From Eledone cirrhosa (Eukaryota): 64,000 bases of DNA. Under the pieces are notes generated by a model. That model made no database searches, was not told where the DNA came from, and was given only the letters and a program-made list of their open reading frames with translations. Numbering within the stretch: the stretch's first letter is position 1; every line of letters starts with the position of its first letter. Made by a program: the position numbers and the translations under genes. Location: the NCBI GenBank assembly GCA_964016885.1, contig OZ024740.1, positions 217,496,001-217,560,000 of the forward strand, given 5' to 3'. Below, one piece after another: positions 2,076-60,863 of the stretch.

Positions 2076-2109
<34 letters not shown>

Positions 2110-2194
2110 TTAAGATAAGCAGAACAAGTAAAATTCAATCAATTTTTCAAAATACATTAAAAAATATAATATAAATATTTACCTCTTCTAGTGG

Positions 2195-2273
2195 CCCTTA
2201 CTGATCAGTTTCGCTCTGTAAAACCTCATAAATCCGATGGATTTATGATGGAAAACCAAAGCTCATCAGAGAA
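2195..2273 (-). ncRNA. Type I hammerhead ribozyme
   Basis: Minus strand reads ttct-CTGATGA-GCTTTG...(tcataaatcc/ggatttatga hairpin)...CAGAGC-GAAA-ctgatcag-TA-aggg. Palindromic stem III, GUA cleavage triplet, short GU-rich stem I. Confidence 0.85.
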
Positions 2274-2679
2274 GCATTTTCCGTTCCTAGGGCTAAACGT
2301 CCCAGGAACGACAAAATATACAACCTCCTGCCAGCTAATAAAGGTCTGAAAGGTCGTAAAAGTGACCCGTATGTAAACTGGACCGAAGTAAAAGCGGGAA
2401 AATCAAAGACTTGCTGTCTACAATTACTGCTAAAAAAATAGCAGCCAAGTAGAGCAACAGATTTGTTCTCAACGGACGGAGAAAAAGGTAGAAGTTAATA
2501 TGCCCAGGGATACTAGGTACCCCTAGAAATACATAGGTTGTCTATGATTCAAGGTTGTTCAATGGTGTTAATTTGATACACCAGAACTTTAATATTAAGA
2601 TAAGCAGAACAAGTAAAATTCAATCAATTTTTCAAAATACATTAAAAAATATAATATAAATATTTACCTCTTCTAGTGG

Positions 2680-2758
2680 CCCTTACTGATCAGTTTCGCT
2701 CTGTAAAACCTCATAAATCCGATGGATTTATGATGGAAAACCAAAGCTCATCAGAGAA
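2680..2758 (-). ncRNA. Type I hammerhead ribozyme (second tandem unit)
   Basis: Same sequence as 2195-2273, offset 485. Confidence 0.85.
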
Positions 2759-3207
2759 GCATTTTCTCTTCCTAGGGCTAAACGTCCCAGGAACGACAAA
2801 ATATACAACCTCCTGCCAGCTAATAAAGGTCTGAAAGGTCGTAAAAGTGACCCGTATGTAAACTGGACCGAAGTAAAAGCGGGAAAATCAAAGACTTGCT
2901 GTCTACAATTACTACTAAAAAAATAGCAGCCAAGTAGAGCAACAGATTTGTTCTCAACGGACGGAGAAAAAGGTAGAAGTTAATATGCCCAGGGATACTA
3001 GGTACCCCTAGAAATACATAGGTTGTCTATGATTCAAGGTTGTTCAATATATATATATATATATATATATTAGAGAGTGAGGTTTTTTTTACAAAATGAA
3101 AAATAACCGAGGTGTCCTACACGAGTGGAAGTATAAAGAAAAAGGGATGAAATCGAGAATGCAACTGAAGTCTTATTTTTTTTAAAAATATATATATTTA
3201 TTTGGTT

Positions 3208-3245
3208 CCTTTACCGGTTTCGCAGTTCTTCTGCTTTTCAAAAGG
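3208..3245 (-). ncRNA. Minimal type I hammerhead, U3:A8 variant (left arm)
   Basis: Reverse complement of 3316-3353. Confidence 0.75.
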
Positions 3246-3315
3246 TGAGTTGAGATGGAGGGTCTGTGGTTTTTCTCACATGTGAGAAAAACCACAGACC
3301 CTCCATCTCAACTCA

Positions 3316-3353
3316 CCTTTTGAAAAGCAGAAGAACTGCGAAACCGGTAAAGG
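3316..3353 (+). ncRNA. Minimal type I hammerhead, U3:A8 variant (right arm)
   Basis: cctt-TTGAAAA-GCAG-aagaa-CTGC-GAAA-ccgg-TA-aagg. Stems I and II are perfect, stem III loop CCGG is palindromic, and core CUGANGA is replaced by UUGAAAA. Confidence 0.78.
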
Positions 3354-3422
3354 AACCAAATAAATATATATATTTTTAAAAAAAATAAGACTTCAGTTGC
3401 ATTCTCGATTTCATCCCTTTTT

Positions 3423-3636
<214 letters not shown>

Positions 3637-5383: not shown

Positions 5384-5961
5384 GAGGTGATACGTGCACG
5401 TACACTGTTTTCTGATAGATGTGTTCATACAAAGATATTGTAATAGATTCAGGTGTCCATATGTATGTCACATTTGTTGTAATTTACTAATGTAAGAAAA
5501 TATCTAGAACTAGAAAAGGTGTGGCACTCAATATATAATAAGTTTTATTTAATATGAGTTTAAAACTCATTATCTTGTGAAACGACATAATATTTTTGAG
5601 GGCCCTGATTAGGACAAAAAAAAACATTAGATATTTTAAAGAAAAGAGTTAAACTTTTACATCGTTAAGTAGTATATCTAATTGTTATAGATACAATAAA
5701 ATAATACAACAGTTTATGAACAAACAGAAATAATTATGATTGAAATCTAATTATCTTGCGAAACCCCAAAATGTTTTGAGGGACCTCACTGTGGAAAATA
5801 CAGCATTAAATATTTGAAATTTTTTACATTAATGCAAAGAGTTTAACTTTGATATTGTTAAGTATTATTATATCTAATTGTTATAGATTCCATACAAATA
5901 GAAAAATCAATGATGTATATTAAAGCTATGTATTGAGATGATAATGTTATTCTTTTTACAG

Positions 5962-7550
5962 ATGAATGTACCTATAATGGAAGAAGGTATGAAGGTGCAT
6001 TTAGCATCGACTGTAACACGTGTGTGTGTCTAGAAAGTGGACGAGCGCAGTGTTCAAATAAGATATGTGACTATGGACAACGATCAACATGTTGGTATGA
6101 AGGTAGACGTTACACAGTAGGACAGACAATCCAACAGTCATGTAATACATGTGTATGCAGAGCCAATGGTCAAATGGAATGTACAAAGAATACATGTCAG
6201 TGTACATATAAAGGACAAAATTACAATATTGGCCAGAGGTTTAATGAGGATTGCAACCAATGTGAATGTTTATCTAGTGGTATTGTACGGTGTTCTAACA
6301 AACGATGTCAATGTTTTGCCAATGGAAGAACATATCCAGTGGGGGCTACCTTTCAAAGGGAATGTAACACTTGCAAGTGTGACATTAACGGCAGAATAGT
6401 GTGTACTGACAACATATGTAAATGTTTTGAAAATGGAAGATCTTACCCCATTGGTGCTACATTTAGCAAGGACTGCAATACATGCACATGTCAAATAGAT
6501 GGTCGTATACAGTGTACAAGCAACGCATGTACTTGCACCTATAACAATATGGCTTATAATTTCGGACAACAATTCAGGAAAGGTTGTAACACCTGCACTT
6601 GTCAACAAAATGGACAGGTCCAATGTACAAATAACCCATGTCAATGTACATATAAAGGACAGGTTTATCAGATTCGTCAAAGATTTAACGATGATTGTAA
6701 CCAATGTGAATGTTTATCTAGTGGTACAGTGCAATGTACCAGTAACGTCTGTCAATGTACATACAACAACCAGGTCTATAATATCGGCGCTTCATTTAAT
6801 CAGGACTGTAACACCTGTAGCTGTCAACAAAATCGACAAGTCCAATGTACAAATAACCCGTGTCAATGTACACATAAAGGACAGGTTTATCAAATTCATC
6901 AAAGATTTAACGATGATTGTAACCAATGTGAATGTTTATCTAGTGGTACAGTGCAGTGCTCTAACAAGGCATGTCAATGTTTAGAAAATGGAAGATCTTA
7001 CCCCATTGGTGCTACATTTAGCAAGGACTGCAATACATGCACATGTCAACAAAATGGACAGTTCAAATGTACAAATAACCCATGTACTTGCACCTACAAC
7101 AATATGGTCTATAATTTCGGACAACAATTCAGGAAAGGTTGTAACACCTGCACTTGTCAACAAAATGGACAATTCCAATGTACAAATAACCCTTGTCAAT
7201 GTACATACAACGGTAAACGTTATGATGTTGGTTCTATATTCTACAATGATTGCAATAAATGTCAGTGCTATGATGATGGAAGAGTCCAATGTGAACAGAA
7301 AATATGCCCCAAACCATGCGTATTCAACGGACAAACCTTTTCTGTGGGAGAATCGTTTAAAAATGACTGCAATACATGTACATGTGGACAGTTTGGTCAA
7401 GTAGGATGTACTAACATGTACTGTCCTAAAACATGCCAATACAACGGAAAAACCTACACAGCTGGCCAAATATTCAAGGCTCAAGATAATTGCAATACAT
7501 GTCGATGTTCAGCTGGGCAAGTCAAGTGTACCAACTTAATATGTGGTCAA
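5962..7550 (+). CDS. Cys-repeat gene copy 1, exon 2: 14 tandem six-Cys pacifastin/truncated-VWC-like repeats. Full CDS join(4300-4360,5962-7550,8483-8497) = 554 aa secreted protein
   Basis: Acceptor TTTTTACAG ends at 5961; open frame of C-x16-C-N-x-C-x-C-x7-C-x4-C units with a 111-bp period; GTGAGT donor at 7551 (phase 0). Confidence 0.92.
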
Positions 7551-8482
7551 GTGAGTATGATTTTTATTACTCTTTTATTGTCTCAAATATTTACAATTCT
7601 ATCTTTCCTCTTATGTAATTTGTAGTCCTTTAGACACATTACACAAAGATATCATTACAATTTCCCTGTGTAATTACTGCTGTGATATAAGAAACAGGGG
7701 AACATCATCATTAGCATAGCTACCATTTAGTGAATGTTTGTTAGAGTATGACAGAGGTGATGGCATTCATTCATTGCTCCCTTGTGACCGATGAGATTAA
7801 TTTTAATAATCTTTCACATAAATTGCTGCAAGTTGATGCCGGTAGGTATGACGTCAACATGGAGAAAATTCGAGAAGGCCGATATTCTCTGTAGGACAGG
7901 TAATGTGTAGAGGGTTTCTGTGGATCCTGAAGGGCAGACACAATATGAGTGATAAGAAATGGAGATACGATTGAGTTGGAATTGTCTGAGTGGAGGTGAC
8001 ATAAAACCAATCATTATAGAAACTCTACACCATTGTAGTAGCAGTAGAAAGGGTAATGAAATAAGTCATTACGACAGTGATTAAGAGGCTGGGGTGTGGC
8101 CTTATCCAATTAGTCAAGAACATTTATCTGGATGTAGAACATCATATCTCCAGTCGTATGTCAAAATAGATGGCAATGTTATAGTCACTTTTATATAACT
8201 ATGAAATATATATTCTCTTTCAAAGAAATGCTTCAGTAGGAATGTTATTGGACTTACCAACATTCTGGTTAAAGGTTCAAACGTTCACTGCTGTTTCGTT
8301 TAATTTCCAACTAAGGGAGTTAATTCAACGTAACTTCGTTCCTTTATTTATCGCTAATATATATGTATATCGATATGTTAAGGAATTTTACCTATATCTA
8401 AATTGTTATATTTTGTAAGTTATTTATTTGATATTGTTTCAATATCAATAGTAATACAATATAAAACTTTATTTCATTACAG

Positions 8483-16346: not shown

Positions 16347-16371
16347 TATATATATATATAAGTATATATAT

Positions 16372-16889
16372 ATATTTCGTTTCTGAATTTGTTTAGCAAG
16401 ATTCTTTATCTGAAAACGTGTGTTGAAACCGATATTGTTATACTTTGGGAGGGTCATGTTGCCAATAAGAAACACACGCACCAGTTGCTTTCACTTCAAT
16501 TTATTATAAATTAAATTTATAAATTTAAGAATTTATAAATTTACGGTTGGTTGGTTGGTTCTACAACCAGACGATTGTTCATATATTGTCAAAGTTCTTT
16601 CGTCACACATTCTGTGACCTCTTCAGTGACTGGGGATTCTTTTCTTTGTTTTTGTGCCTCTCCTTTGTTCTGTCCTACGCCATCTTGATGGCGTAGGACA
16701 GAACAACGGAGGTCACAGAATGTGTGACGAAAGAACTTTGACAATATATGAACAATCGTCTGGTTGTGGAACCAACCAACCAACCGGATATTTATTAATT
16801 CCTAAATTTATCAATTTAATTTATAATAAATTGAAGTGAATTTACTGGTGCGTGTGTTTCTTATTGGCAACATGACCGTCCCAAAGTAT

Positions 16890-26708: not shown

Positions 26709-26785
26709 CACCTGCTGATGAGCCAAGAGTTGAGTTTGTAACCACTAGCACGGCGAAACGAATTCTTAGCGAATTTTTACAGGTG
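26709..26785 (+). ncRNA. Type I hammerhead with a full stem III, within island about 26455-26926
   Basis: cacctg-CTGATGA-GCC...GGC-GAAA-cGAATTC-ttagc-GAATTTt-TA-caggtg, one mismatch at 15.2/16.2. The island has about 24-bp inverted ends. Confidence 0.78.
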
Positions 26786-33150: not shown

Positions 33151-33730
33151 AGGTGATACGTGCACGTACACTGTTTTCTGATAGATATGTTAATACAAAG
33201 ATATTGTAATAGATTCAGGTGTCCATATGTCTGTCACATTTGTTGTAATTTACTAATGTAAGAAAATATTTTGAACTAGAAAAGGTGTTGCACTCAATAT
33301 ATAATAACAGTTTTATTTAATATGAGTTTAAAACTCATTATCTTGTGAAACGACATAATATTTTTGAGGGCCCTGATTAGGACAAGAAAAAAACATTAGA
33401 TATTTTAAAGAAAAGAGTTAAACATTTACATCGTTAAGTAGTATATCTAATTGTTATAGATACAATAAAATAATACAACATTTTATAAACAAACAGAAAT
33501 AATTATGATTGAAATCTAATTATTTTGCGAAACCCCAAAATGTTTTGAGGGACCTCACTGTGGAAAATACAGCATTAAATATTTGAAATTGTTTACATTA
33601 ATGCAAAGAGTTTAACTTTGATACTGTTAAGTATTTTTATATCTAATTGTTATAGATTCCATACAAATAGAAATATCAATGATGTATATTAAAGCTATAT
33701 ATTGAGATGATAATGTTATTCTTTTTACAG

Positions 33731-35430
33731 ATGAATGTACCCATAATGGAAGAAGGTATGAAGGTGCATTTAGCATCGACTGTAACACGTGTGTGTGTCT
33801 TGAAAGTGGACGAGCGCAGTGTTCAAATAAGATATGTGACTATGGACAACGATCAACATGTTGGTATGAAGGTAGACGTTACACAGTAGGACAGACAATC
33901 CAACAGTCATGTAATACATGTGTATGCAGAGCCAATGGTCAAATGGATTGTACAAAGAATACATGTCAGTGTACATATAAAGGACAAAATTACAATATTG
34001 GCCAGAGGTTTAATGAGGATTGCAACCAATGTGAATGTTTATCTAGTGGTATTGTACGGTGTTCTAACAAACGATGTCAATGTTTTGCCAATGGAAGAAC
34101 ATATCCAGTGGGGGCTACCTTTCAAAGGGAATGTAACACTTGCAAGTGTGACATTAACGGCAGAATAGTGTGTTCTGACAACATATGTAACTGTTTTGAA
34201 AATGGAAGATCTTACCCTATTGGTGCTACATTTAGCAAGGACTGCAATACATGCACATGTCAACAACATGGACAGGTCCGATGTACAAATAACCCGTGTC
34301 AATGTACACATAAAGGACAGGTTTATCAAGTTCGTCAAAGATTTAATGATGATTGCAACCAATGTGAATGTTTATCTAGCGGTACAGTGCAGTGTTCTAA
34401 CAAGGCATGTCAATGTTTTGAAAATGGAAGATCTTACCCCAGTGGTGCTACATTTAGCAAGGACTGCAATACATGCACATGTCAAATAGATGGTCGTATA
34501 CAGTGTACAAGCAACCCATGTACTTGCACCTATAACAATATGGCTTATAATTTCGGACAACAATTCAGGAAAGGTTGTAACACCTGCACTTGTCAACAAA
34601 ATGGACAGGTCCAATGTACAAATAACCCATGTCAATGTACATATAAAGGACAGGTTTATCAGATTCGTCAAAGATTTAACGATGATTGTAACCAATGTGA
34701 ATGTTTATCTAGTGGTACAGTGCAATGTACCAGTAACGTCTGTCAATGTACATACAACAACCAGGTCTATAATATCGGCGCTTCATTTAATCAGGACTGT
34801 AACACCTGTAGCTGTCAACAAAATCGACAAGTCCAATGTACAAATAACCCGTGTCAATGTACACATAAAGGACAGGTTTATCAAATTAATCAAAGATTTA
34901 ACGATGATTGTAACCAATGTGAATGTTTATCTAGTGGTACAGTGCAGTGCTCTAACAAGCCATGTCAATGTTTTGAAAATGGAAGATCTTACCGCATTGG
35001 TGCTACATTTAGCAAGGACTGCAATACATGCACATGTCAACAAAATGGACAGTTCCAATGTACAAATAACCCTTGTCAATGTACATACAACGGTAAACGT
35101 TATGATGTTGGTTCTATATTCTACAATGATTGCAATAAATGTCAGTGCTATGATGATGGAAGAGTCCAATGTGAACAGAAAATATGCCCCAAACCATGCG
35201 TATTCAACGGAAAAACCTATTCTGTGGGAGAATCGTTTAAAAATGACTGCAATACATGTACATGTGGTCAGTTTGGTCAAGTAGGATGTACTAACATGTA
35301 CTGTCCTAAAACATGCCAATACAACGGAAAAATCTACACAGCTGGCCAAATATTCAAGGCTCAAGATAATTGCAATACATGTCGATGTTCAGCTGGGCAA
35401 GTCAAGTGTACCAACTTAATATGTGGTCAA
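33731..35430 (+). CDS. Cys-repeat gene copy 2, exon 2: 15 repeats. Full CDS join(32128-32188,33731-35430,36364-36378) = 591 aa
   Basis: Acceptor ends at 33730, open frame, GTGAGT donor at 35431. 111 bp longer than copy 1. Confidence 0.92.
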
Positions 35431-36363
35431 GTGAGTATGGTTTTTATTACTCCTTTATTGTCTCAAATATTTACAATTCCATCTTACCTCTTATGTAATT
35501 TGTAGTCCTTTAGACACATTACACAAAGACATCATTACAATTTCCCTGTGTAATTACTGCTGTGATATAAGAAACAGGGGAACATCATCATTAGCATAGC
35601 TACCATTTAGTGAATGTTTGTTAGAGTATGACAGAGGTGATGGCATTCATTCATTGCTCCCTTGTGACCGATTAGATTAATTTTAATAATCTTTCACATA
35701 AATTGCTGCAAGTTGATGCCGGTAGGTATGACGTCAACATGGAGAAAATTCAAGAAGGCCGATATTCTCTGTAGGACAGGTAATGTGTAAAGGGTTTCTG
35801 TGGATCCTGGTGGGCAGACACATTATGAGTGATAAGAAATGGGGATACGATTGAGTTGGAATTGTCTGAGTGGAGGTGACATGAAACCAACCATCTTAGA
35901 AGCTCTATACCATTGTAGTAGCAGTATAAAGGTTAATGAAATAAGTCATTACGACAGTGATTAAGAGACTGGGGTGTGACTTTAAACCAATTAGTGAAGA
36001 ACTTTTATCTGGATGTAGAACATCATATCTCCAGTCGTATGTCAAAATAGATGGCAATGTTATAGTCACTTTTATATAACTATGAAATATATATTCTCTT
36101 TCAAAGAAATGCTTCAGTAGGAATGTTATTGGACTTACCAACATTCTGGTTAAAGGTTCAAACGTTCACTGCTGTTTCGTTTAATTTCCAACTAAGGGAG
36201 TTAATTCAACGTAACTTCGTTCCTTTATTTATCGCTAATATATATGTATATCGATATGTTAAGGAATTTTACCTATATCTAAATTGTTATATTTTGTAAG
36301 TCATTTATTTGATATTGTTTCAATATCAATAGTAATACAATATAAAACTTTATTTCATTACAG

Positions 36364-41422: not shown

Positions 41423-41984
41423 ATTAGAGTTAAAACTCAATTGGAACCCTGTACGTATTAAGCTCCAAGTATAAATATAAATATAAATACTGAGCCAATT
41501 AATAATATATAGTAAGAAACACAGTAAACCGTGTGTCTAAAATTACAAGGGTTGAAAAACCACATTTGTTTGAAATATTTAACCAAGAAGCAGACAGAAT
41601 GATAAAATATACAAACCGCCGCAATAACCATTATATCTCTCGGACAGATTATCCCTAATCTGTTTCGCCCTGAGTGTGTTTGTAACAGATAATACCACGT
41701 TTGACTAGTGGAGCACGAGGTGATAAATTCATCTTTCTGTGTGAACGTTGGCAAATAGTGTTTGTGGCATTTAATCAGAATCTCTCGCTGATGAAGCCCA
41801 GGATTATCTGTTACAAACACACTCAGGGCGAAACAGATTAGGGATAATCTGTCCGAGAGATATAATGGTTATTGCAGCGGTTTGTATATTTTATCATTCT
41901 GTCTGCTTCTTGGTTAAATATTTCAAACAAATGTGGTTTTTCAACCCTTGTAATTTTAGACACACGGTTTACTGTGTTTCTTAC

Positions 41985-41994
<10 letters not shown>
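41420..41994. mobile_element. PLE-type foldback insert in (TA)n; 192-bp arms 41502-41693 and 41803-41994
   Basis: Near-perfect inverted arms with a 109-bp spacer; contains an HHR. Confidence 0.85.
41780..41861 (+). ncRNA. Canonical full type I hammerhead (GUC cleavage after 41853)
   Basis: atctctcg-CTGATGA-a-GCCC...GGGC-GAAA-CAGATTA-ggga-TAATCTG-TC-cgagagat. Confidence 0.92.
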
Positions 41995-47769: not shown

Positions 47770-49705
47770 ATGGCCTTAGCAACCTGTGCCCTACAAGACC
47801 AGCAAGAGGCAGACGACCTACCATTACTTCAATGGCCAAGAAAACCCACACAGATAGATGGAACGGGTGGACCAGAGCCATACGGACCCCGAAAACCACG
47901 ATGGACTAAAGAAAATGATTGCACATGCGGTGGGAGGCCTTAAGGAACATATGTTCAAATTTAATGGAAAAACATATGCCGAAGAGGAGGGAGCAGCCAT
48001 TGATGTTAGCATTGCAGGTGACATAGCTAACCTATTCATGGTATGGTGGGACAATAAACCTAAACTTAAACTTAAAGAACAATTACAAGACAGCAACCCC
48101 TTAACCCTGATAATGTACTCCCGCTACATTGATGATATAAACATCGTAGTAAAAACACCCCCACTAGAGAACAGTCAGGAATTAGAGAAAAACACCATGG
48201 AAAGTATCCAGCAAATAGCTAACTCCATCCACCAGAGTATTAGAGTTACTATAGACTACCCAAGCAAACACCCCAACCATCGATTACCTGTACTAGACAC
48301 AGAACTCTGGTTAGATACCATTAATAACAAAAAACAAATCCTCCATTCCCATTATGCCAAACCCATGACTTCCAAATATCTGATCCACCGAAACTCAGCT
48401 GTTTCAGACCATACCAAAATCAACATTCTGATTGCGGATTTCGTACGAGTGATGAGAAACGTGTCCCGCATGTGCAACCCCAAAGAACTAGAGAGACACA
48501 TACAACACTTCATCCACCGTATGCAGTTCTCTGCTTACAATCAGAGAGATAGAATCAGAGTATATAGAGGAGCCAGAACCAAATGGCAAAAATGGTAAAT
48601 AATGACACAAATGGGACCTGCCCCTTGTATAGGAGCAAATTTTGGAATAGAATAGAAAGAACTAGGAATAAGGTTAATAGAATAAACTCATGGTATGATA
48701 GCAATAAATACCAGAGTGTAATTTTCATCGATACAACCCTAGAGGTGAATTAGCTTACAAATTTAGAAGGGCCCTAGATAAACATAAACTCAATATTAAG
48801 ATAGTAGAAAGACCAGGTACCTCCATAAAAACACTTATTAGCAATACATACCCTTTTCAAAGACCTCCCTGTATAGATAAGAAATGTATAATCTGTAAAT
48901 TAAGCCTGCATATTAACTGTAAAAATAGAAATGTAGTATATAGCATAAGATGTACTGAAGGACAATGTAGAGATAAGAATATAGTGTACATAGGTGAGAC
49001 AGCTCGTAGTATAGGGGAACGGATAAATGAACACTGGCGAGACCTTCAAGATAGTAAAGAATCAGCTGTACTCTACCAACATGCTAAAATAGAACATAAG
49101 GGTAAATTAGAGAACATAGAAATAAAAATAGAATCTACACACAGAAAAGACGCAATGTTTAGACAAATCACAGAGGCAATAAACATAAAAGAATTACAGC
49201 CAAAATTAAATAGAAAACATGAGTGGAACAGCAATATCACAACTTATAATTAAGGACAAAATGAAAACACACACGCACATAGAACAAACAACCAACCTGT
49301 AACATGTAAATAAACAAATAAATAAAGCAATATAAACACACACAGACACCCGGATGTGGCGCATGCGCAGACTGAGCACACAACACACACACAGAAACAA
49401 GATGGCGTAGGACAGAACAAAGAATAGGCACAAAAACAAAGAAAAGAATCCCCAGTCACTGAAGAGGTCACAGAATGTGTGACGAAGGAACTTTGACAAT
49501 ATATAAACAACCATCTGGTTGTGGAACCAACCAACCGGAAATTTATAAATTCCTAAATTTATAAATTTATTATAATAAATTGAAGTGAAAGCGGCTGGTG
49601 CGTGTGTTTCTTATTGGCAACATGACCCTCCCAAAGTATAACAATATCGGTTTCAACACACGTTTTCAGATAAAGAATCTTGCTAAACAAATTCAGAAAC
49701 GAAAT
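47770..49705 (+). mobile_element. Penelope-like retroelement 3' part: RT, GIY-YIG endonuclease and pseudo-LTR
   Basis: RT motifs GAAIDVSIAGDIANLFM, RYIDD, LPVLD; GIY-YIG motifs VVYSIRC...YIGETARSIGERINEH...EAINIKELQPKLN; frameshifted. Confidence 0.92.
49455..49497 (+). ncRNA. Minimal hammerhead in the Penelope pseudo-LTR (GAAA mutated to GAAG)
   Basis: gtca-CTGAAGA-G-GTCACA-gaatg-TGTGAC-GAAG-gaac-TT-tgac; the intact version is at 16588-16630. Confidence 0.7.
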
Positions 49706-49714
49706 ATATATATA

Positions 49715-52700
49715 TATATATATATAAATGCAAGTTTACGATTCTGTGTGTCCGCCTAAAATTAGCAATCTACCGGACCAAACTCCTCAAAATTACATGT
49801 ACATATTCACTATGCACTCGGACAGGAAACGGTCGAAAAAGGTTTATTTTGCAAAGCATGGAATTCATTTAAAATCAATTTATCTTATTTATCAATGAAT
49901 ATCAAAAGAGATCATCCATTTTGTTTTTTATGTTCTCCAGTCTGTAGATAAGATAGTGAGGGATGGGAAGAGAGAGAGTGGCAGATGGAAGAGAGAGTAA
50001 GGGGATGAGAGAGAAAGAGAGAGAGAGTGAGTGGATGGGAGAGAGAGAGTAAGGGGGTGTTAGAGAGAAAGAAAGAGAGTAAGGGATGAGAGAGAGAGAG
50101 TGGGAGATGGGCGAGAGAGAGAGAGAGAGTAAGAAGATGTGAGAGAGAAAGAAAGAGAGTAAGGGGATGAGAGAGAAAGACGATGAAAGAGAGAGAGGCA
50201 AAGTAATCAGCAAGACCTGGAATCGAAGAAAGCAGTGTCATTTAGTGGAAGGTCATGAAGTCAAGTCAAGTGATACTATTGGGCGTGTTTACAATGTCCA
50301 TCCCAACAACAGAGAATGTTTTTATTTACGGCTATTTCTGCATACTGTTCGAGGACCAACGTCATTTGAGCATCTTAGGTGCTTCAGAGGAAAGGAGTGC
50401 GCAACATACCAAGAAGCATGTAAACAGCATGGACTCCTGCATGACAATGGACACTGGAAGAAGTGCCTAAAAGAAGCAGCAATCACTCAAGTACCCAGCC
50501 AAATAAGACAATTATTTGTTATTATGCTCACGGCATGTGGAATTGATGAAGCTCATCTACTCTGGCAGGAGTACAAAAACAATATGTCGGACGACTATCT
50601 ACACCTAGCCCGAAGACATCATGGCAATATGTATATGGAGTATACACCCAGGATTTACAATCAAGCTCTCTGTGACGTGTCCCATCGAGTTCAGGCAATG
50701 AATATCACATTAGCTAACTGCGGGATGCCAGAGCCAGATGAAGAAATAGAGGTAGCACAAGACATTTTTCAGGAGACAAACTACGATATCCAAGCATTGC
50801 GTAAGTTTGTGGATGAAAATGAACCTCGATTGATGGGTGACCAGAAATACGCCTACCACGACATCATCGAAAACATTCAAAATAACAGGGGAGGACTTTT
50901 CATCATCGATGCTCCTGCTGGCACAGGCAGGACATTCCTCATAAACCTCCTGCTTGCAAAAGTTCGCCAAAAGCAACATATTGCCCTTGTTGTGGCTTCA
51001 AGTGGCATTGCAGCAACACTTCTGGGTGGAGGAAGAACTGCACACTCCATGTTTAAGCAGCCTATAGATCTCACACGGCATGAACAATCTTTTTGCAACA
51101 TCAAGAAGAACTCACCCAAGGGCAAGCTTCTGCAAACATGCAAGATAATAATTTGGGATGAAGCTACGATGAGCCATAAAGGAGCAATTGAAGCTTTGGA
51201 CCGGACGATAAGGGATCTGAGAGAAAATAGTTGCATAATGGGAGGAGTGACAATGGTTCTTGCTGGTGATTTCAGACAAACTCTGTCTGTAATTCTTCGA
51301 GGGACGCGAGCTGATCAGGTAAATGTCTGTCTGAAAACATCCTATATCTGGCCCCACCTTCAGCTGCTGAGCCTTACAACCAACATGCGAGAGCACTTAA
51401 CTGGTGACAAAGGTGTCAGTGAGTTTGCCATCCAACTACTTAAATTGGGAAATGGACTTCTTGAAAAGGACTCCAATGACCATATTCAGTTGTCATTTGG
51501 CCATATCCTTGACACAGAACAAGAACTGATTGCCAGAGTGTTTCCAAACATTCAGACCAGGCAATGTGATCCGAAATGGCTCTGTCAACGAGCACTCTTA
51601 GCACCTAAAACTGTTGCTGTGAAAGAAATCAACAGAAGGCTGCTGGAGATGTTACCGGGACTGAAAATATGCTACAAATCAGTTGACACAATCACTTCTC
51701 AAGACCATGTTGTAAACTATCCAACTGAATTTTTGAATAGTCTTGAACAAGAAGGAATTCCTCCACACAATGAGATACTGAGGCTTGGAGCATCGGTTAT
51801 GCTACTTCGCAATCTGGATCCTCCAAAACTTTGTAATGGCACAAGACTCATCATCAAAAATATGATGTCCAATGTTCTAGAAATTGCAATCATATCAGGA
51901 AAATTTGCTGGTGACAATTGTTTCATTCCCAGAATACCTCTGAAGCCAGCTGATTTGCCATTTGAATTTCAAAGACTTCAATTTCCGATCAGGTTCAGTT
52001 TTGCCATGACCATTAATAAATCTCAAGGGCAATCATTGAAAGTCGTTGGGTTGAATCTGGCAGATCCTGTCTTTTCGCATGGTCAACTCTATGTTGGCAC
52101 AACAAGGGTTGGGAACCCTGATTGTCTCCTCATTGTGGCACAACAGGGCAAAATCAAGTATGTTGTTTATCCAGAGAATTTGGAATGAGCAATGTCCTAA
52201 TTCCGCATTCAATGACAATACACACAGATTCTAATTCCTTAGTCATGTAGTTTGCAAGGAATTCTGAAGCTGCAAATTTACTGCATGTTGTCGCTTTGGA
52301 AGAATATGTAGGCATTCCCAATTACCTCTACTATATAAAGTAGTATAAGTACGGACTTTGTTGGGTAGAAATAGCAGCCAAATTTCCTTAAATGTGTATG
52401 TATCTATGTATGTCGTGTGAGACTCTATACCTGTTGGTATAGCTAATAGAAATAGAAAATAAATCTCCCTCAAACAAGATCCTACTGCCATAGAGGCAAA
52501 TATTGGTGAAAGCTACAGTGTACAAATTTAAATACACTTTCCCAGAATTAGAGAAATGAGTAAGTAAATGCTTCATTCAATCATAAACCAACTCTAAATT
52601 TATTTTCTTATTTAATTTATGGTTTTTAAAATAGTCTTTACATGTTTGAATTTCAGAGGTTCAGATTGAGCAAAAAAAAAAGAAAGAAAATGATAAATAA

Positions 52701-56000: not shown

Positions 56001-59000
56001 TCTATTTCGGAAAGAGTGTGGTGTGTAATAATATCACTTCAAATGCCTAGAAAACGTTCCAGATCATTATATGGAAGGTCATCTTCAGAGGCTAAGAGAA
56101 AGAAAACACAGCGATCTGAAGAAAGTGAAGAAGTTCGGCATGCCCGTCTAGCTGCTAACAGAGCCCAAACAGCGTTAGCACGAGCACACCATTTGGGAAC
56201 AAAGGACTGCTGTTACACGAGAACAACAAATTAAGGAACAGCAGCAAATCAGACGAAATGCTAATCAAGAACATCGTTTCTACTGCCTGAGCAGGAGAAC
56301 AAGCCACAAGTAAAATGAACTGGCTGATGGGTGCTTTTTCTTATGACCCTCAAAAGGACTACAGCAGTAATCCACAAATCAACATTGGCAAAATGAACAA
56401 ATGCTGCCAGTATTGTGTTGCCAAGAAGTGGGCAGCAGAAACACCAAGTCTATGGTGCTCAAAAGGCAAAGTGAGCCTTAAAACAATACAAGAACCTCCT
56501 GAATTTCTGAAGAATCTGCTCCTTCAGGATACACCAGAAGCACGACACTTCAATAAATACATCATAAAATATAATTCTGCCTTTCAAATGACATCTTTTG
56601 GGGCTGACAGGAATGTTATTGACTTTAGATTCTGTACAGTATTACCACTTAATGGGTGGCGTTCTGCCTCTTTTACAGGAGTCTCACAAATTTGTGCAGG
56701 TTTACTTCATGGGTGGAAATGAAACAAAGGCACAACAAAGATGTACCAATACCCATGGTGGATTGCAGTTCTACATAGTCATAATGTTACAAGAAATGCT
56801 TCACTAACATCATAAGTACGTCAGTGTATTTAAATATGCACTGGAACATATGAACAACATCAGAGATCTTAAAATCATCATTAGGGCAGATAAACACCCA
56901 GACTCAGAACATGAACGAATATTCAATGGACCTGTCACTGATGAAGTTGCAATCATAATGGTTGATGAAGAGTATGGACGACGTCACATTGTTTTACACA
57001 AACAAAGTGGACATTTGGAGCGAATTTGTGAAACTCATAGAGCCTATGATTCACTCCAATATCCGCTCATCTTTTGGAATGGTCAAGATGGATATCATTT
57101 TCGGCTACGGCAGATCAGCCCAGGAACGGGACAAGAAGCTGGCCGATCAATCAACTGCAAAGAATTCTATGCTTATCATTTCATGGTACGTGATCACTTC
57201 AACCAAGTTCTGCGATTCAAAGAAGTAACCAGCCAGTTCATGGTGGACATGTATGCCAAAATTGAAACAGAAAGATTGGGTTTTCTGGGAAGGATTCAAC
57301 TAAGTTGAGGGCAGATAACTACATCCACCTTAGAGATGCCATCAATTCTGATGTTGACCCAAGAAATATTGGCCAGCCAGTCATACTAGATCTCTTCATT
57401 ACATTTACATGCAATTCAAACTGGTCAGAAATATCAAATGAATTTTTTGAAAATCAAAACCAAAGGATCGATATAACCTTATTGCTCGGGTTTTCCATGA
57501 AAAGCAAAAACAACTCATCCTTCTCCTAAAAGAAGGAAGAATCTTTGGTGAGCTTAGTGCTTGGATGACCACGTTTGAGTGGCAAAAGAGAGGTCTTCCT
57601 CACTCTCACACACTAATCTGGTGCAAGGAGAAGATAAGACCAGATGATGTTGATAAGATCATTTCAGCAGAGTTTCCTGATAAAGGTGGTGATCCAGAGC
57701 TCTTTGAAACCATCAAGTCCAAACTCATTCATGGTCCATCAATCCAGCCTCTCCCTGCATGAAAGATAAAAAATGCAGCAGACATTATCCTAGAGCTTTT
57801 ATTCGGGAAACTCGTCGTACACAACAAAGTTTTGTGTAAACTTTTAAAAGCTCATATCATATGTTGAGTATTGCAGCTCCGTCAAGGCAATCCTATATGT
57901 CACAAAATTATCAACAAGGGCAGTGATATGGCTACCTTTATTACTGACAAAGAACTCAATGATGGTTGGCTGAATGAGGTCAAACGGTATGAAACATGTC
58001 GATACATCTCCAGCAATGAAGCTATCTGGCGAATCTTTGGATTTGATATCCACAAACGCCACCCAACAGTGGACACCCTCGCAGTCCACCTGGAAAATGG
58101 ACAGAGAGTGTACTTCACTAAGATCACTGCTCATCAGTTGACACAAGTATCACATGACACTACACTAACTGCTTTCTTTAAACTCTGCCAGAATGATGTA
58201 TTTGTTCGATCCCTCCTATATCCTGAAGTCCCAACATACTACACCGGGACCAATTGCAAGACCTGGAATCGAAGAAAGCAGGGTCATGAAGTCAAGTCAA
58301 GTGATGCTATTGGGCCTGTTTAGAATGTCCATTCCAACAACAGAGAATGTTTTTATTTACGGCTACTTCTGCATACTGTTCGAGGACCAACGTCATTTGA
58401 GGATCTTAGATGCTTCAGAGGAAGGGAGTGTGCAACATACCAAGAAGCATGTACACAGCATGGACTCCTGCATGACAATGGAAACTGGAAGAAGTGCCTA
58501 GAAGAAGCAGCAATCACTCAAGTAGCCAGCCAAATAAGACAATTATTTGCTATTATGCTCACCGCATGTGGAATTGATGAAGCTCATCTACTCTGGCAGG
58601 AGTACAAAAAACAATATGTCGGACGACTATCTACACCTAGCCCGAAGATATCATGGCAATATGTATATGGAATATACCCCCAGGATTTACAATCAAGCTC
58701 TCTGTGACGTGTCCCATCGAGTTCAGGCAATGAATATCACATTAGCTAACTGCGGGATGCCAGAGCCAGATGAAGAAATAGAGGTAGCACAAGACATTTT
58801 TCAGGAGACAAACTACGATATTCAAGCATTGCGTAAGTTTGTGGATTGATGGGTGATCAGAAATACGCCTACCACAACATCATCGAAAACATTCAAAATG
58901 ACAGGGGAGGACATTTCTTCATCGATGCTCCTGCTGGCACAGGTAAGACATTCCTCATAAACCTCCTGCTTGCAAAGGTTCGCTAAAAGCAACATATTGC

Positions 59001-60863
59001 CCTTGCTGCGGCTTCAAGTGGCATTGCAGCAACACTTCTGTATGGAGGAAGAACTATCTCTGGCCCCGCTTTCAGCTGCTGAGCCTTACAACCAACATGC
59101 GAGTGCACTTAACTGGTGACAAAGGTGTCAGTGAGTTTGCCATCCAACTACTTAAATTGGGAAATGGACTTCTTGAAAAGGACTCCAATGACCATATTCA
59201 GTTGTCATTAGGCCATATCATTGACACAGAACAAGAACTGATTGCCAGAGTGTTTCCAAACAATCAGACCAGGCAATGTGATCCGAAATGGCTCTGTGAA
59301 CGAGCAATCTTGGCACCTAAAAATGTTACTCTGAAAGAAATCAACAGAAGGCTGCTGGAGATGTTACTGGGAGAGAAAATAAGTTACAGATCAGTTGTCA
59401 CAATCACTTCTCAAGACCATGTTGTAAACTATCCAATTGAATTTTTGAACAGTCTTGAACAAGCGGGAATTCCTCCACACAACCTGATACTGAGGCTTGG
59501 AGCATCGGTTATGCTACTTCGCAATCTGGATCCTCCAAAACTTTGTAATGGCACAAGACTCATCATCAAAAATATGATGTCCAATGTTCTAGAAGTTGCA
59601 ATCATGTCAGGAAAATTTGCTGGTGAAAATTGTTTTATTCCAAGAATACCTCTGAAGCCAACTGATTTGCCATTTGAATTTCAAAGACTTCAATTTCCGA
59701 TCAGGCTCAGTTTTGCCATGACCATTAATAAATCTCAAGGGCAATCATTGAAAGTCGTTGGGTTGAATCTGGCAGATCCTGTCTTTTCACATGGTCAACT
59801 CTATGTTGGCACAACAAGGGTTGGGAACCTTGATTGTCTCTTTATAGTGGCACCACAGGGCAAAACCAAGAATGTTGTTTATCCAGAGGCTTTGGAATGA
59901 GCAATGTCGTAATTCCTCATTCAATGACAATACACACACTTCCTAATTTCTTAGTCATGTAGTTTGCAAGGAATTCTGAAGCCGCAAATTTACTGCATGG
60001 TGTTACTTTGAAAGAATGTGCAGGCAGTCCCGGGTACCTCTGCTATATAAAGTAGTATAAGTAAAGACTTTGTTGGGTAGAAATAGCAGCCAAATTTCCT
60101 TCAAATTCCACCTTACTTTCTCAGCTATGTATATATGTATGAAGTAAAAAGGAATGGTCCTATGTGATAACTGGATCTACTAGAAATATTAGCAAAATCC
60201 ATTTCAAATCACAAACAACTGTCTTACACTCATCCATGTGTGTGTATGTATCTATGTATGTCGTGTGAGCCACTATACCTGTTGGTATAGCTAATAGAAA
60301 TAGAAAACAAATCTCCCTCAAACAAGATCCTACTGCCATAGAGACTAAGATTGGTGAAAGCTACAGTGTACAAATTTAAATACACTTTCCCCGAATTACA
60401 GAAATGTGTAAGTAAATGCTTCATTCAATCATAAACCAATGCTAAATTTATTTTCTTATTTTATTTATGGTTTTTAAAATAGTCTTTACATGTTGTTTGA
60501 ATTTCAGAGGTTCAGATTGAGCAAAAAAATAAAAAAAGAAAGAAAGAAAAGGACAAAGAAAAAAAATCTAGATATATTTTTTTGGTCATACTCTGACAAC
60601 ATACCTAATGATTCATCTATGAGTAAAGCATTATATATGCTGACTGTAATAGGGAGCAGTATTTAAAAAAATCACCACTGGAAAAAACTAATATTTTTAT
60701 CGAGATGATTTACTTTGACCAAACGACAATAAATATTCTGCTATAATTCCTACTTTGGCTAAAATTCAGCAATCATATTTGAATGGTCAAATATTTTGTA
60801 ATGTGTGCCAAATATACTGTAATTTTCATAAAATACCCAGGTATCACCGGGTAGTTCAGCGAG
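53011..60863 (+). mobile_element. Near full-length decayed Helitron (Rep-Hel pseudogene about 56040-59900)
   Basis: Rep motifs DLFITFTCN and FEWQKRGLPHSH, helicase GTGKT through TINKSQG, and a 3' hairpin with CTAG mutated to CGAG. Head-to-tail with the preceding copy. Confidence 0.92.
53806..55458 (-). mobile_element. hAT DNA transposon (Charlie/SPIN, GTF2IRD2-like transposase), internally deleted
   Basis: 15-bp TIR CAGGGGTCACCAAAC / GTTTAGTGACCCCTG, 8-bp TSD GTGTAGAG at 53798-53805 and 55459-55466, frameshifted transposase MATKKRK..DAECRVFNEEW..HCIIYQQ..VRWLS. Confidence 0.95.

Follow-up and report, generated by a model that had tools for sequence, protein, structure and literature searches.

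The 485-bp tandem array and its hammerheads

The window analysed in this study is a stretch of 64,000 nucleotides of the Eledone cirrhosa genome, in which TRF reports a tandem repeat of period 485 at 2107-3048 (1.9 copies, 99% alike). We set the edges of the array to 2110-3048, which gives 1.94 head-to-tail copies of a non-coding 485-bp unit. Unit positions (u) are numbered along the minus strand (Table 1), on which the array reads u32-485 followed by u1-485. The two window units differ at three positions and the longest stop-to-stop frame within the array is 83 aa. Both carry on the minus strand, in the same order, CUGAUGA, stem II, GAAA, CUGAUCAG and UA. This is the layout of a hammerhead consisting of the stem I 5′ strand, CUGAUGA, stem II, GAAA, a palindromic stem III, UA and the stem I 3′ strand, with the core C positions at 2269 and 2754, a spacing of 485 nt between the predicted cuts, and a stem II of six pairs plus a long extension. 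An earlier sequence-only reading of this DNA had described two near-identical head-to-tail units without an open reading frame, a minus-strand hammerhead in each, predicted cleavage sites 485 nt apart, and a 10-nt palindromic stem III beside a long stem II hairpin, and our analysis recovered each of these. A search of Rfam over the window hammerheads returned no match at the gathering score and none at E<=10, probably because stem II is extended.

Table 1. Coordinates in the window of the 485-bp array, its predicted parts and the adjoining sequences.
Feature	Position	Strand	Remark
Full 485-bp unit	2110..2594	-	u1 = 2594, u485 = 2110
Upstream unit, 5′-truncated (u32-485; without first 31 nt)	2595..3048	-	
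Type I hammerhead, downstream copy	2190..2278	-	predicted cut after GUA, 2199/2198
Type I hammerhead, upstream copy	2675..2763	-	predicted cut 2684/2683
Palindromic stem III, ACTGATCAGT	2200-2209, also 2685-2694	-	
Predicted 485-nt monomer between both cuts	2199..2683	-	
Fixed end S1 (u467-485), putative main reverse-transcription start	2110..2128	-	
Second fixed end S2 (u104-109, tail end)	2486..2491	-	in use in other copies, not in the window copy
(TA)n target microsatellite, S1 side	2076..2109	.	
(TA)n adjoining the 5′-truncated end	3049..3070	.	
Neighbouring separate insertion	3071..3429	.	inverted 3′ ends 3132-3429 and ~60-nt tail 3071-3131

The paralogous site at ~61.8 kb of the window (90-96% alike) is an empty microsatellite, whereas two ~99%-alike duplicates (L112 and L113), ~100 kb away in either direction, contain the insertion. 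The suggestion that the insertion is younger than the segmental duplication is therefore correct for the older duplication only, and comparison of these paralogues places the insertion between two duplication rounds. Each segmental duplicate also contains Helitron-like PIF1 helicase fragments (23-1020, 50143-52188 and 56808-59900), and a long exon for a cysteine-rich VWC/pacifastin-repeat protein, with kielin/chordin-like relatives in molluscs, is duplicated at 5937-7625 and 33706-35505. Hammerhead-like motifs of other families occur at 26715, 41788 and 61233 (minus) and at ~24158, one of them in an inverted repeat (41502-41994) and one with the palindrome ACCATGGT. Three tandem hammerheads with a spacing of 467 bp and an ACTAGT stem III were seen elsewhere (L094:43-1000).

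A dispersed family with two fixed insertion ends

The hammerhead 19-mer across the cleavage site has 635 exact copies in the 3.0-Gb genome and its reversed control has none, which argues that the hammerhead is not a chance motif. The last 19 nt of the unit, its 3′ end, has 1012 exact copies, again with 0 for the reversed control. A DNA search of the genome gave 2039 candidate places, of which the best 39 were scored. The family is scattered over many chromosomes, mostly at (TA)n sites, in arrays of up to about 10 units, and identity to the window unit ranges from ~78% to 100% among 108 full units. After removal of coordinate duplicates we read 162 insertions, a non-random sample made up of the best-scoring young copies, every site with the exact 19-mer within the first 380 Mb of C1, more C1 3′-end sites, and old copies. 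Literature searches limited to openly accessible papers and the main texts of preprints gave no earlier account of this family.

The outer ends of the insertions fall at two fixed places ~105 nt apart, S1 (u485) and S2 (u104-109 of the next unit). The 162 insertions divide into 95 with S1 and a truncation, 40 with S1 and S2, 13 with S2 and a truncation, 2 with S1 at both ends, 0 with S2 at both ends and 12 others, and the S1+S2 class makes up 40 of the 42 two-armed insertions. Among the first 120 insertions it made up 34 of 36, where independent choice of ends would give 21% (p 2e-21). TATATA lies within 12 nt of the end in 105 of 109 cases at S1 and in 38 of 44 at S2; the outer ends sit inside (TA)n, which makes target-site duplications unreadable. 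There are zero lineage-level variants in S1 (u467-485) in 87 units, and in the predicted circular fold both S1 and S2 are unpaired and directly 3′ of a hairpin.

Variable 5′ truncation, inversions and unrelated flanks are found among the insertions, which have the Penelope-type traits of a one-end tail, an inverted 5′ arm, partial tandems and an AT-rich target. In the available account of PMC8557442, Penelope-like insertions are truncated and partly tandem, with an inverted copy on the 5′ side, a one-end tail and microsatellite targets. In vitro, both strands of AT-rich DNA are nicked and extended by a Penelope protein of the anole, which starts at two internal RNA sites bounding the tail (PMC11167929). 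The back-to-back S1+S2 layout is, at the level of sequence, the Penelope ‘tail’ signature, and we tie the 485-bp unit to Penelope machinery because its insertion ends match this type of anatomy.

Conservation and predicted folding of the ribozyme

In 87 units, no lineage variant falls at the seven core positions or in the stem I 5′ strand, the cleavage triplet is GUA or GUC only, and the inner U-A pair of stem III is replaced by C-G in 16 units, a compensatory change that keeps the palindrome. Variable sites number 4 of 41 in the hammerhead versus 98 of 396 elsewhere (p 0.03), a comparison in which conservation at u379-397 is inflated because the exact hammerhead 19-mer chose part of the sample. 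In old subfamilies the basal pair of stem II is mismatched. The consensus circular fold of 18 diverse units contains six compensatory pairs. Folded as a circle, the monomer has a predicted energy of -145 kcal/mol versus -101.6 +/- 6.4 for 40 shuffles (z -6.8), with 65% of it paired; in the window unit the active hammerhead fold differs from the minimum-energy fold.

A dimeric hammerhead fold, which had been proposed earlier, is possible in that the palindrome duplex is predicted at -13.6 kcal/mol, but it may not be needed because a stem III of 3 bp capped by a tetraloop is available to the monomer. Among Xenopus retrozyme dimers, 8 of 9 showed no cleavage (10.64898/2026.07.22.740005). A Pol III promoter was looked for and was not found, and stretches of 5-7 U residues in the RNA would disfavour read-through by Pol III.

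The two A>G differences of the window insertion raised the question of A-to-I editing scars, an idea that found no support, as the internal branches of a 108-unit tree carry 44 A>G versus 45 T>C changes (p 0.11). The A>G at u379, in stem II, is found in L001, L004, L031 and L040 on two u233-variant backgrounds, through either recurrent change or template switching.

Nature of the template

Our results suggest, with a probability of roughly 0.7, that the array is a young non-coding 485-bp retrozyme whose mobility depends in trans on an RT/GIY-YIG protein of Penelope-like type, with a unit-length RNA circle as the predicted template. Read-through transcripts spanning two hammerheads of an array would cleave themselves after GUA and free a 485-nt monomer, which a host ligase would close. 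A protein, presumably that of a Penelope element, would nick (TA)n and begin to reverse-transcribe the RNA internally at S1, and synthesis on the opposite DNA strand would begin at S2, ~105 nt downstream. A variable number of turns round the template could then yield both the 5′-truncated tandem arrays and the back-to-back arms, the window copy being one S1-primed arm of 1.94 turns.

The distribution of variants among units bears directly on the template. Linear read-through of source arrays should pass new variants on as mosaics, whereas lineage variants present in every unit point to one unit-length template copied repeatedly, most simply a circle. In 64 young insertions, of which 52 have at least two pieces, 18 lineage variants occupied every covering unit in 46 cases and were mosaic in 1; without three variants seen in just two insertions, the definition of which favours this result, the counts are 41 and 1. 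Private variants of young arrays are in all units of their own insertion in 5 cases and mosaic in 49, the latter as expected for later mutations or copying errors. Once old copies are added, the counts become 193 all-unit versus 59 mosaic, and most of these mosaics are single-unit matches. In both L112 and L113, the duplicates of the window insertion, the units are identical and at u92 and u379 differ from most of the family, so that the window dimer is most simply explained as one template copied twice.

The strongest alternative is also driven by Penelope but has a linear template, either read-through multimers that stay uncut or cut monomers joined by template jumps; lengthening and homogenising of the arrays would follow at the DNA level, and the hammerhead would have another or only an occasional role. 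In favour of this explanation is the higher-order periodicity, of 2 or 3 units, seen in long arrays, with period-2 variants in L006 and L069 and longer repeated blocks in L044 and L045, which call for multimeric templates or later DNA-level expansion because one monomer circle cannot yield them. In the only in vitro study at hand on Penelope insertion cleavage is dispensable, since hammerhead mutants caused no loss of insertion by the anole protein and unprocessed RNA was the dominant substrate (PMC11167929). The 5′ ends of the insertions are also enriched near the ribozyme, at u380-450, and 40 of 89 long arms end in u351-450, a distribution consistent with stalls at the ribozyme and at the AU hairpin next to it, with partial cleavage also possible. 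Run-off at the cleavage site was rejected as the source of these ends, which have no sharp peak at u397, and this absence speaks against a linear template as well. Against a linear template are further the all-unit variants, which also fill incomplete 5′ units and arms in inverted orientation (L029, L050, L057 and L067), the seamless cleavage site, with 0 deletions at u384-403 in 173-180 pieces of a partly selected sample, and the covariation of the ribozyme across ~20% divergence. On balance we consider a linear template unlikely.

A bolder form of the circle model is that a Penelope RT dimer copied one ribozyme-made circle from two starts simultaneously, one per nicked strand, and that the family survived ~20% divergence without a coding parent as a purely parasitic circle. 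We would give this even odds.

Search for a coding parent

If the unit were only the pseudo-LTR at the terminus of an autonomous Penelope-like element with coding copies that escaped the searches, a coding element should adjoin it at a recurring junction. No such element was found in the 162 insertions, one flank of which was unread, and no RT and GIY-YIG frame lay between pseudo-LTRs, as it would in an autonomous Penelope-like element. The sequence-only reading had named a unit that is always such a terminus as one refuting outcome and had proposed a genome-wide look for arrays as opposed to RT/GIY-YIG attachment; what emerged was arrays of the length given above and, in this sample, no recurring coding junction. 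It is in favour of a missed parent that our sample is 162 of several hundred insertions, that the searches scored the best candidates only, and that Penelope-like coding fragments are present in 5 of 111 5′ flanks. However, a (TA)n run separates the unit from the fragment in 4 of these 5, the junction of the fifth (L301) being unread, and the three pairs of 5′ flanks that have a common abutting sequence adjoin the unit at differing positions. The oldest copies examined keep the same non-coding unit and ends, and in a control family searched in the same manner, to which the neighbouring element (3071-3429) belongs, 8 of 30 loci, some of them redundant, had a coding frame upstream. We regard a missed parent of this kind as very unlikely.

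Other leads to a parent were tried and rejected. A hammerhead pair 2.8 kb apart (L043), which could have been a pLTR-ORF-pLTR arrangement, is only a microsatellite-embedded local duplicate, and a short-stem-II motif with the same stem III had 2 matches, both unrelated. Tracing back from two old copies yielded only more non-coding units, and loose ends in public contigs were traced to an old subfamily.

Penelope-like coding families with an equal tail layout and TA flanks occur in the genome. One of them is represented by the neighbouring insertion, which stands in the same TA run as the 485-bp array and of which 3132-3429 is a perfect 298-bp palindrome made of a pair of 3′ ends, in inverted orientation, from a young Penelope-like coding family. 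In L270 this family has a 436-aa frame with a GIY-YIG domain (E 4e-7) and, by eye, RT-like motifs; the hammerhead-like motif of the neighbouring insertion has a UUGAAAA core, in which U3-A8 replaces C3-G8, and an ACCGGT stem III. We consider it a candidate, although unproven, partner of the 485-bp unit. A second, abundant family (20585 candidate genomic places) has RT and GIY-YIG fragments at 16350-16840 and 47858-49729, a minimal hammerhead at 16626 (minus), a fixed end and a 59-nt tail. No sequence common to the 485-bp unit and the 3′ ends of these two families was found in 30 + 30 loci. In L272:5412-9632 (minus), a 1407-aa open frame looks like two Penelope-like pieces of different families fused in frame.

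The weakest explanation, in which DNA-level duplication spread a satellite-like repeat whose hammerhead is decorative, can point to the three copies that segmental duplication produced here and to the local duplicate in L043, but judged by the end anatomy (fixed 3′ ends with variable truncation, inversions and unrelated flanks), the empty paralogous site and the hammerhead covariation it is largely refuted.

Relation to known retrozymes and Penelope-like elements

By its sequence-level features the 485-bp element is a non-LTR retrozyme, an already known class, with cleavage and circle predicted. That assignment, made in the sequence-only reading, is borne out by a dispersed, non-coding family of tandem arrays with a conserved and covarying hammerhead and, in 162 insertions, without a recurring coding attachment. 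The metazoan non-LTR retrozymes, in the available account of PMC7229834, likewise have tandem units that are non-coding and contain a single type I hammerhead, GC <50%, no LTR, a strongly self-paired predicted circle, and co-occurring Penelope-like elements. At 485 nt the unit exceeds the 170-400 nt RNAs given there, but is inside the 51-972 bp range in the accessible part of 10.64898/2026.07.22.740005. It further differs from the retrozymes of PMC7229834, as far as that account goes, in its extended stem II and in that circles were shown there, whereas the 485-bp circle is a prediction from sequence; the two-site fixed ends and TA targeting of our family have no counterpart in the same account.

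Li, Clavereau and Pollet (10.64898/2026.07.22.740005), in the portion available, treat retrozymes as non-autonomous Penelope derivatives linked to pseudo-LTRs by homology. In contrast, the Penelope link of the 485-bp family comes from insertion anatomy, with no homologous parent found, and its arrays would mostly have formed at insertion, whereas local amplification is favoured in that portion of their text. The family resembles EN+ Penelope-like insertions, as these are outlined in PMC8557442, PMC11167929 and PMC4209133, in 5′ truncation, partial tandems, the inverted 5′ arm, the one-end tail, microsatellite targets, and a hammerhead with a palindromic helix III. It departs from the same outline in having no ORF, a tail of 104-109 nt versus 30-40, and up to ~10 full units per insertion.

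Retrozyme movement and the use of hammerhead circles by Penelope have been proposed, without demonstration, in the parts of PMC7229834, PMC4209133 and 10.64898/2026.07.22.740005 at hand. The 485-bp family ties retrozymes to Penelope by the anatomy of its ends and by a unit-length bottleneck in its variants, and it offers defined predicted cut and start sites. If the circle is indeed copied from two starts, the family would be a ready non-coding substrate for asking whether Penelope elements really use hammerhead circles as their template.
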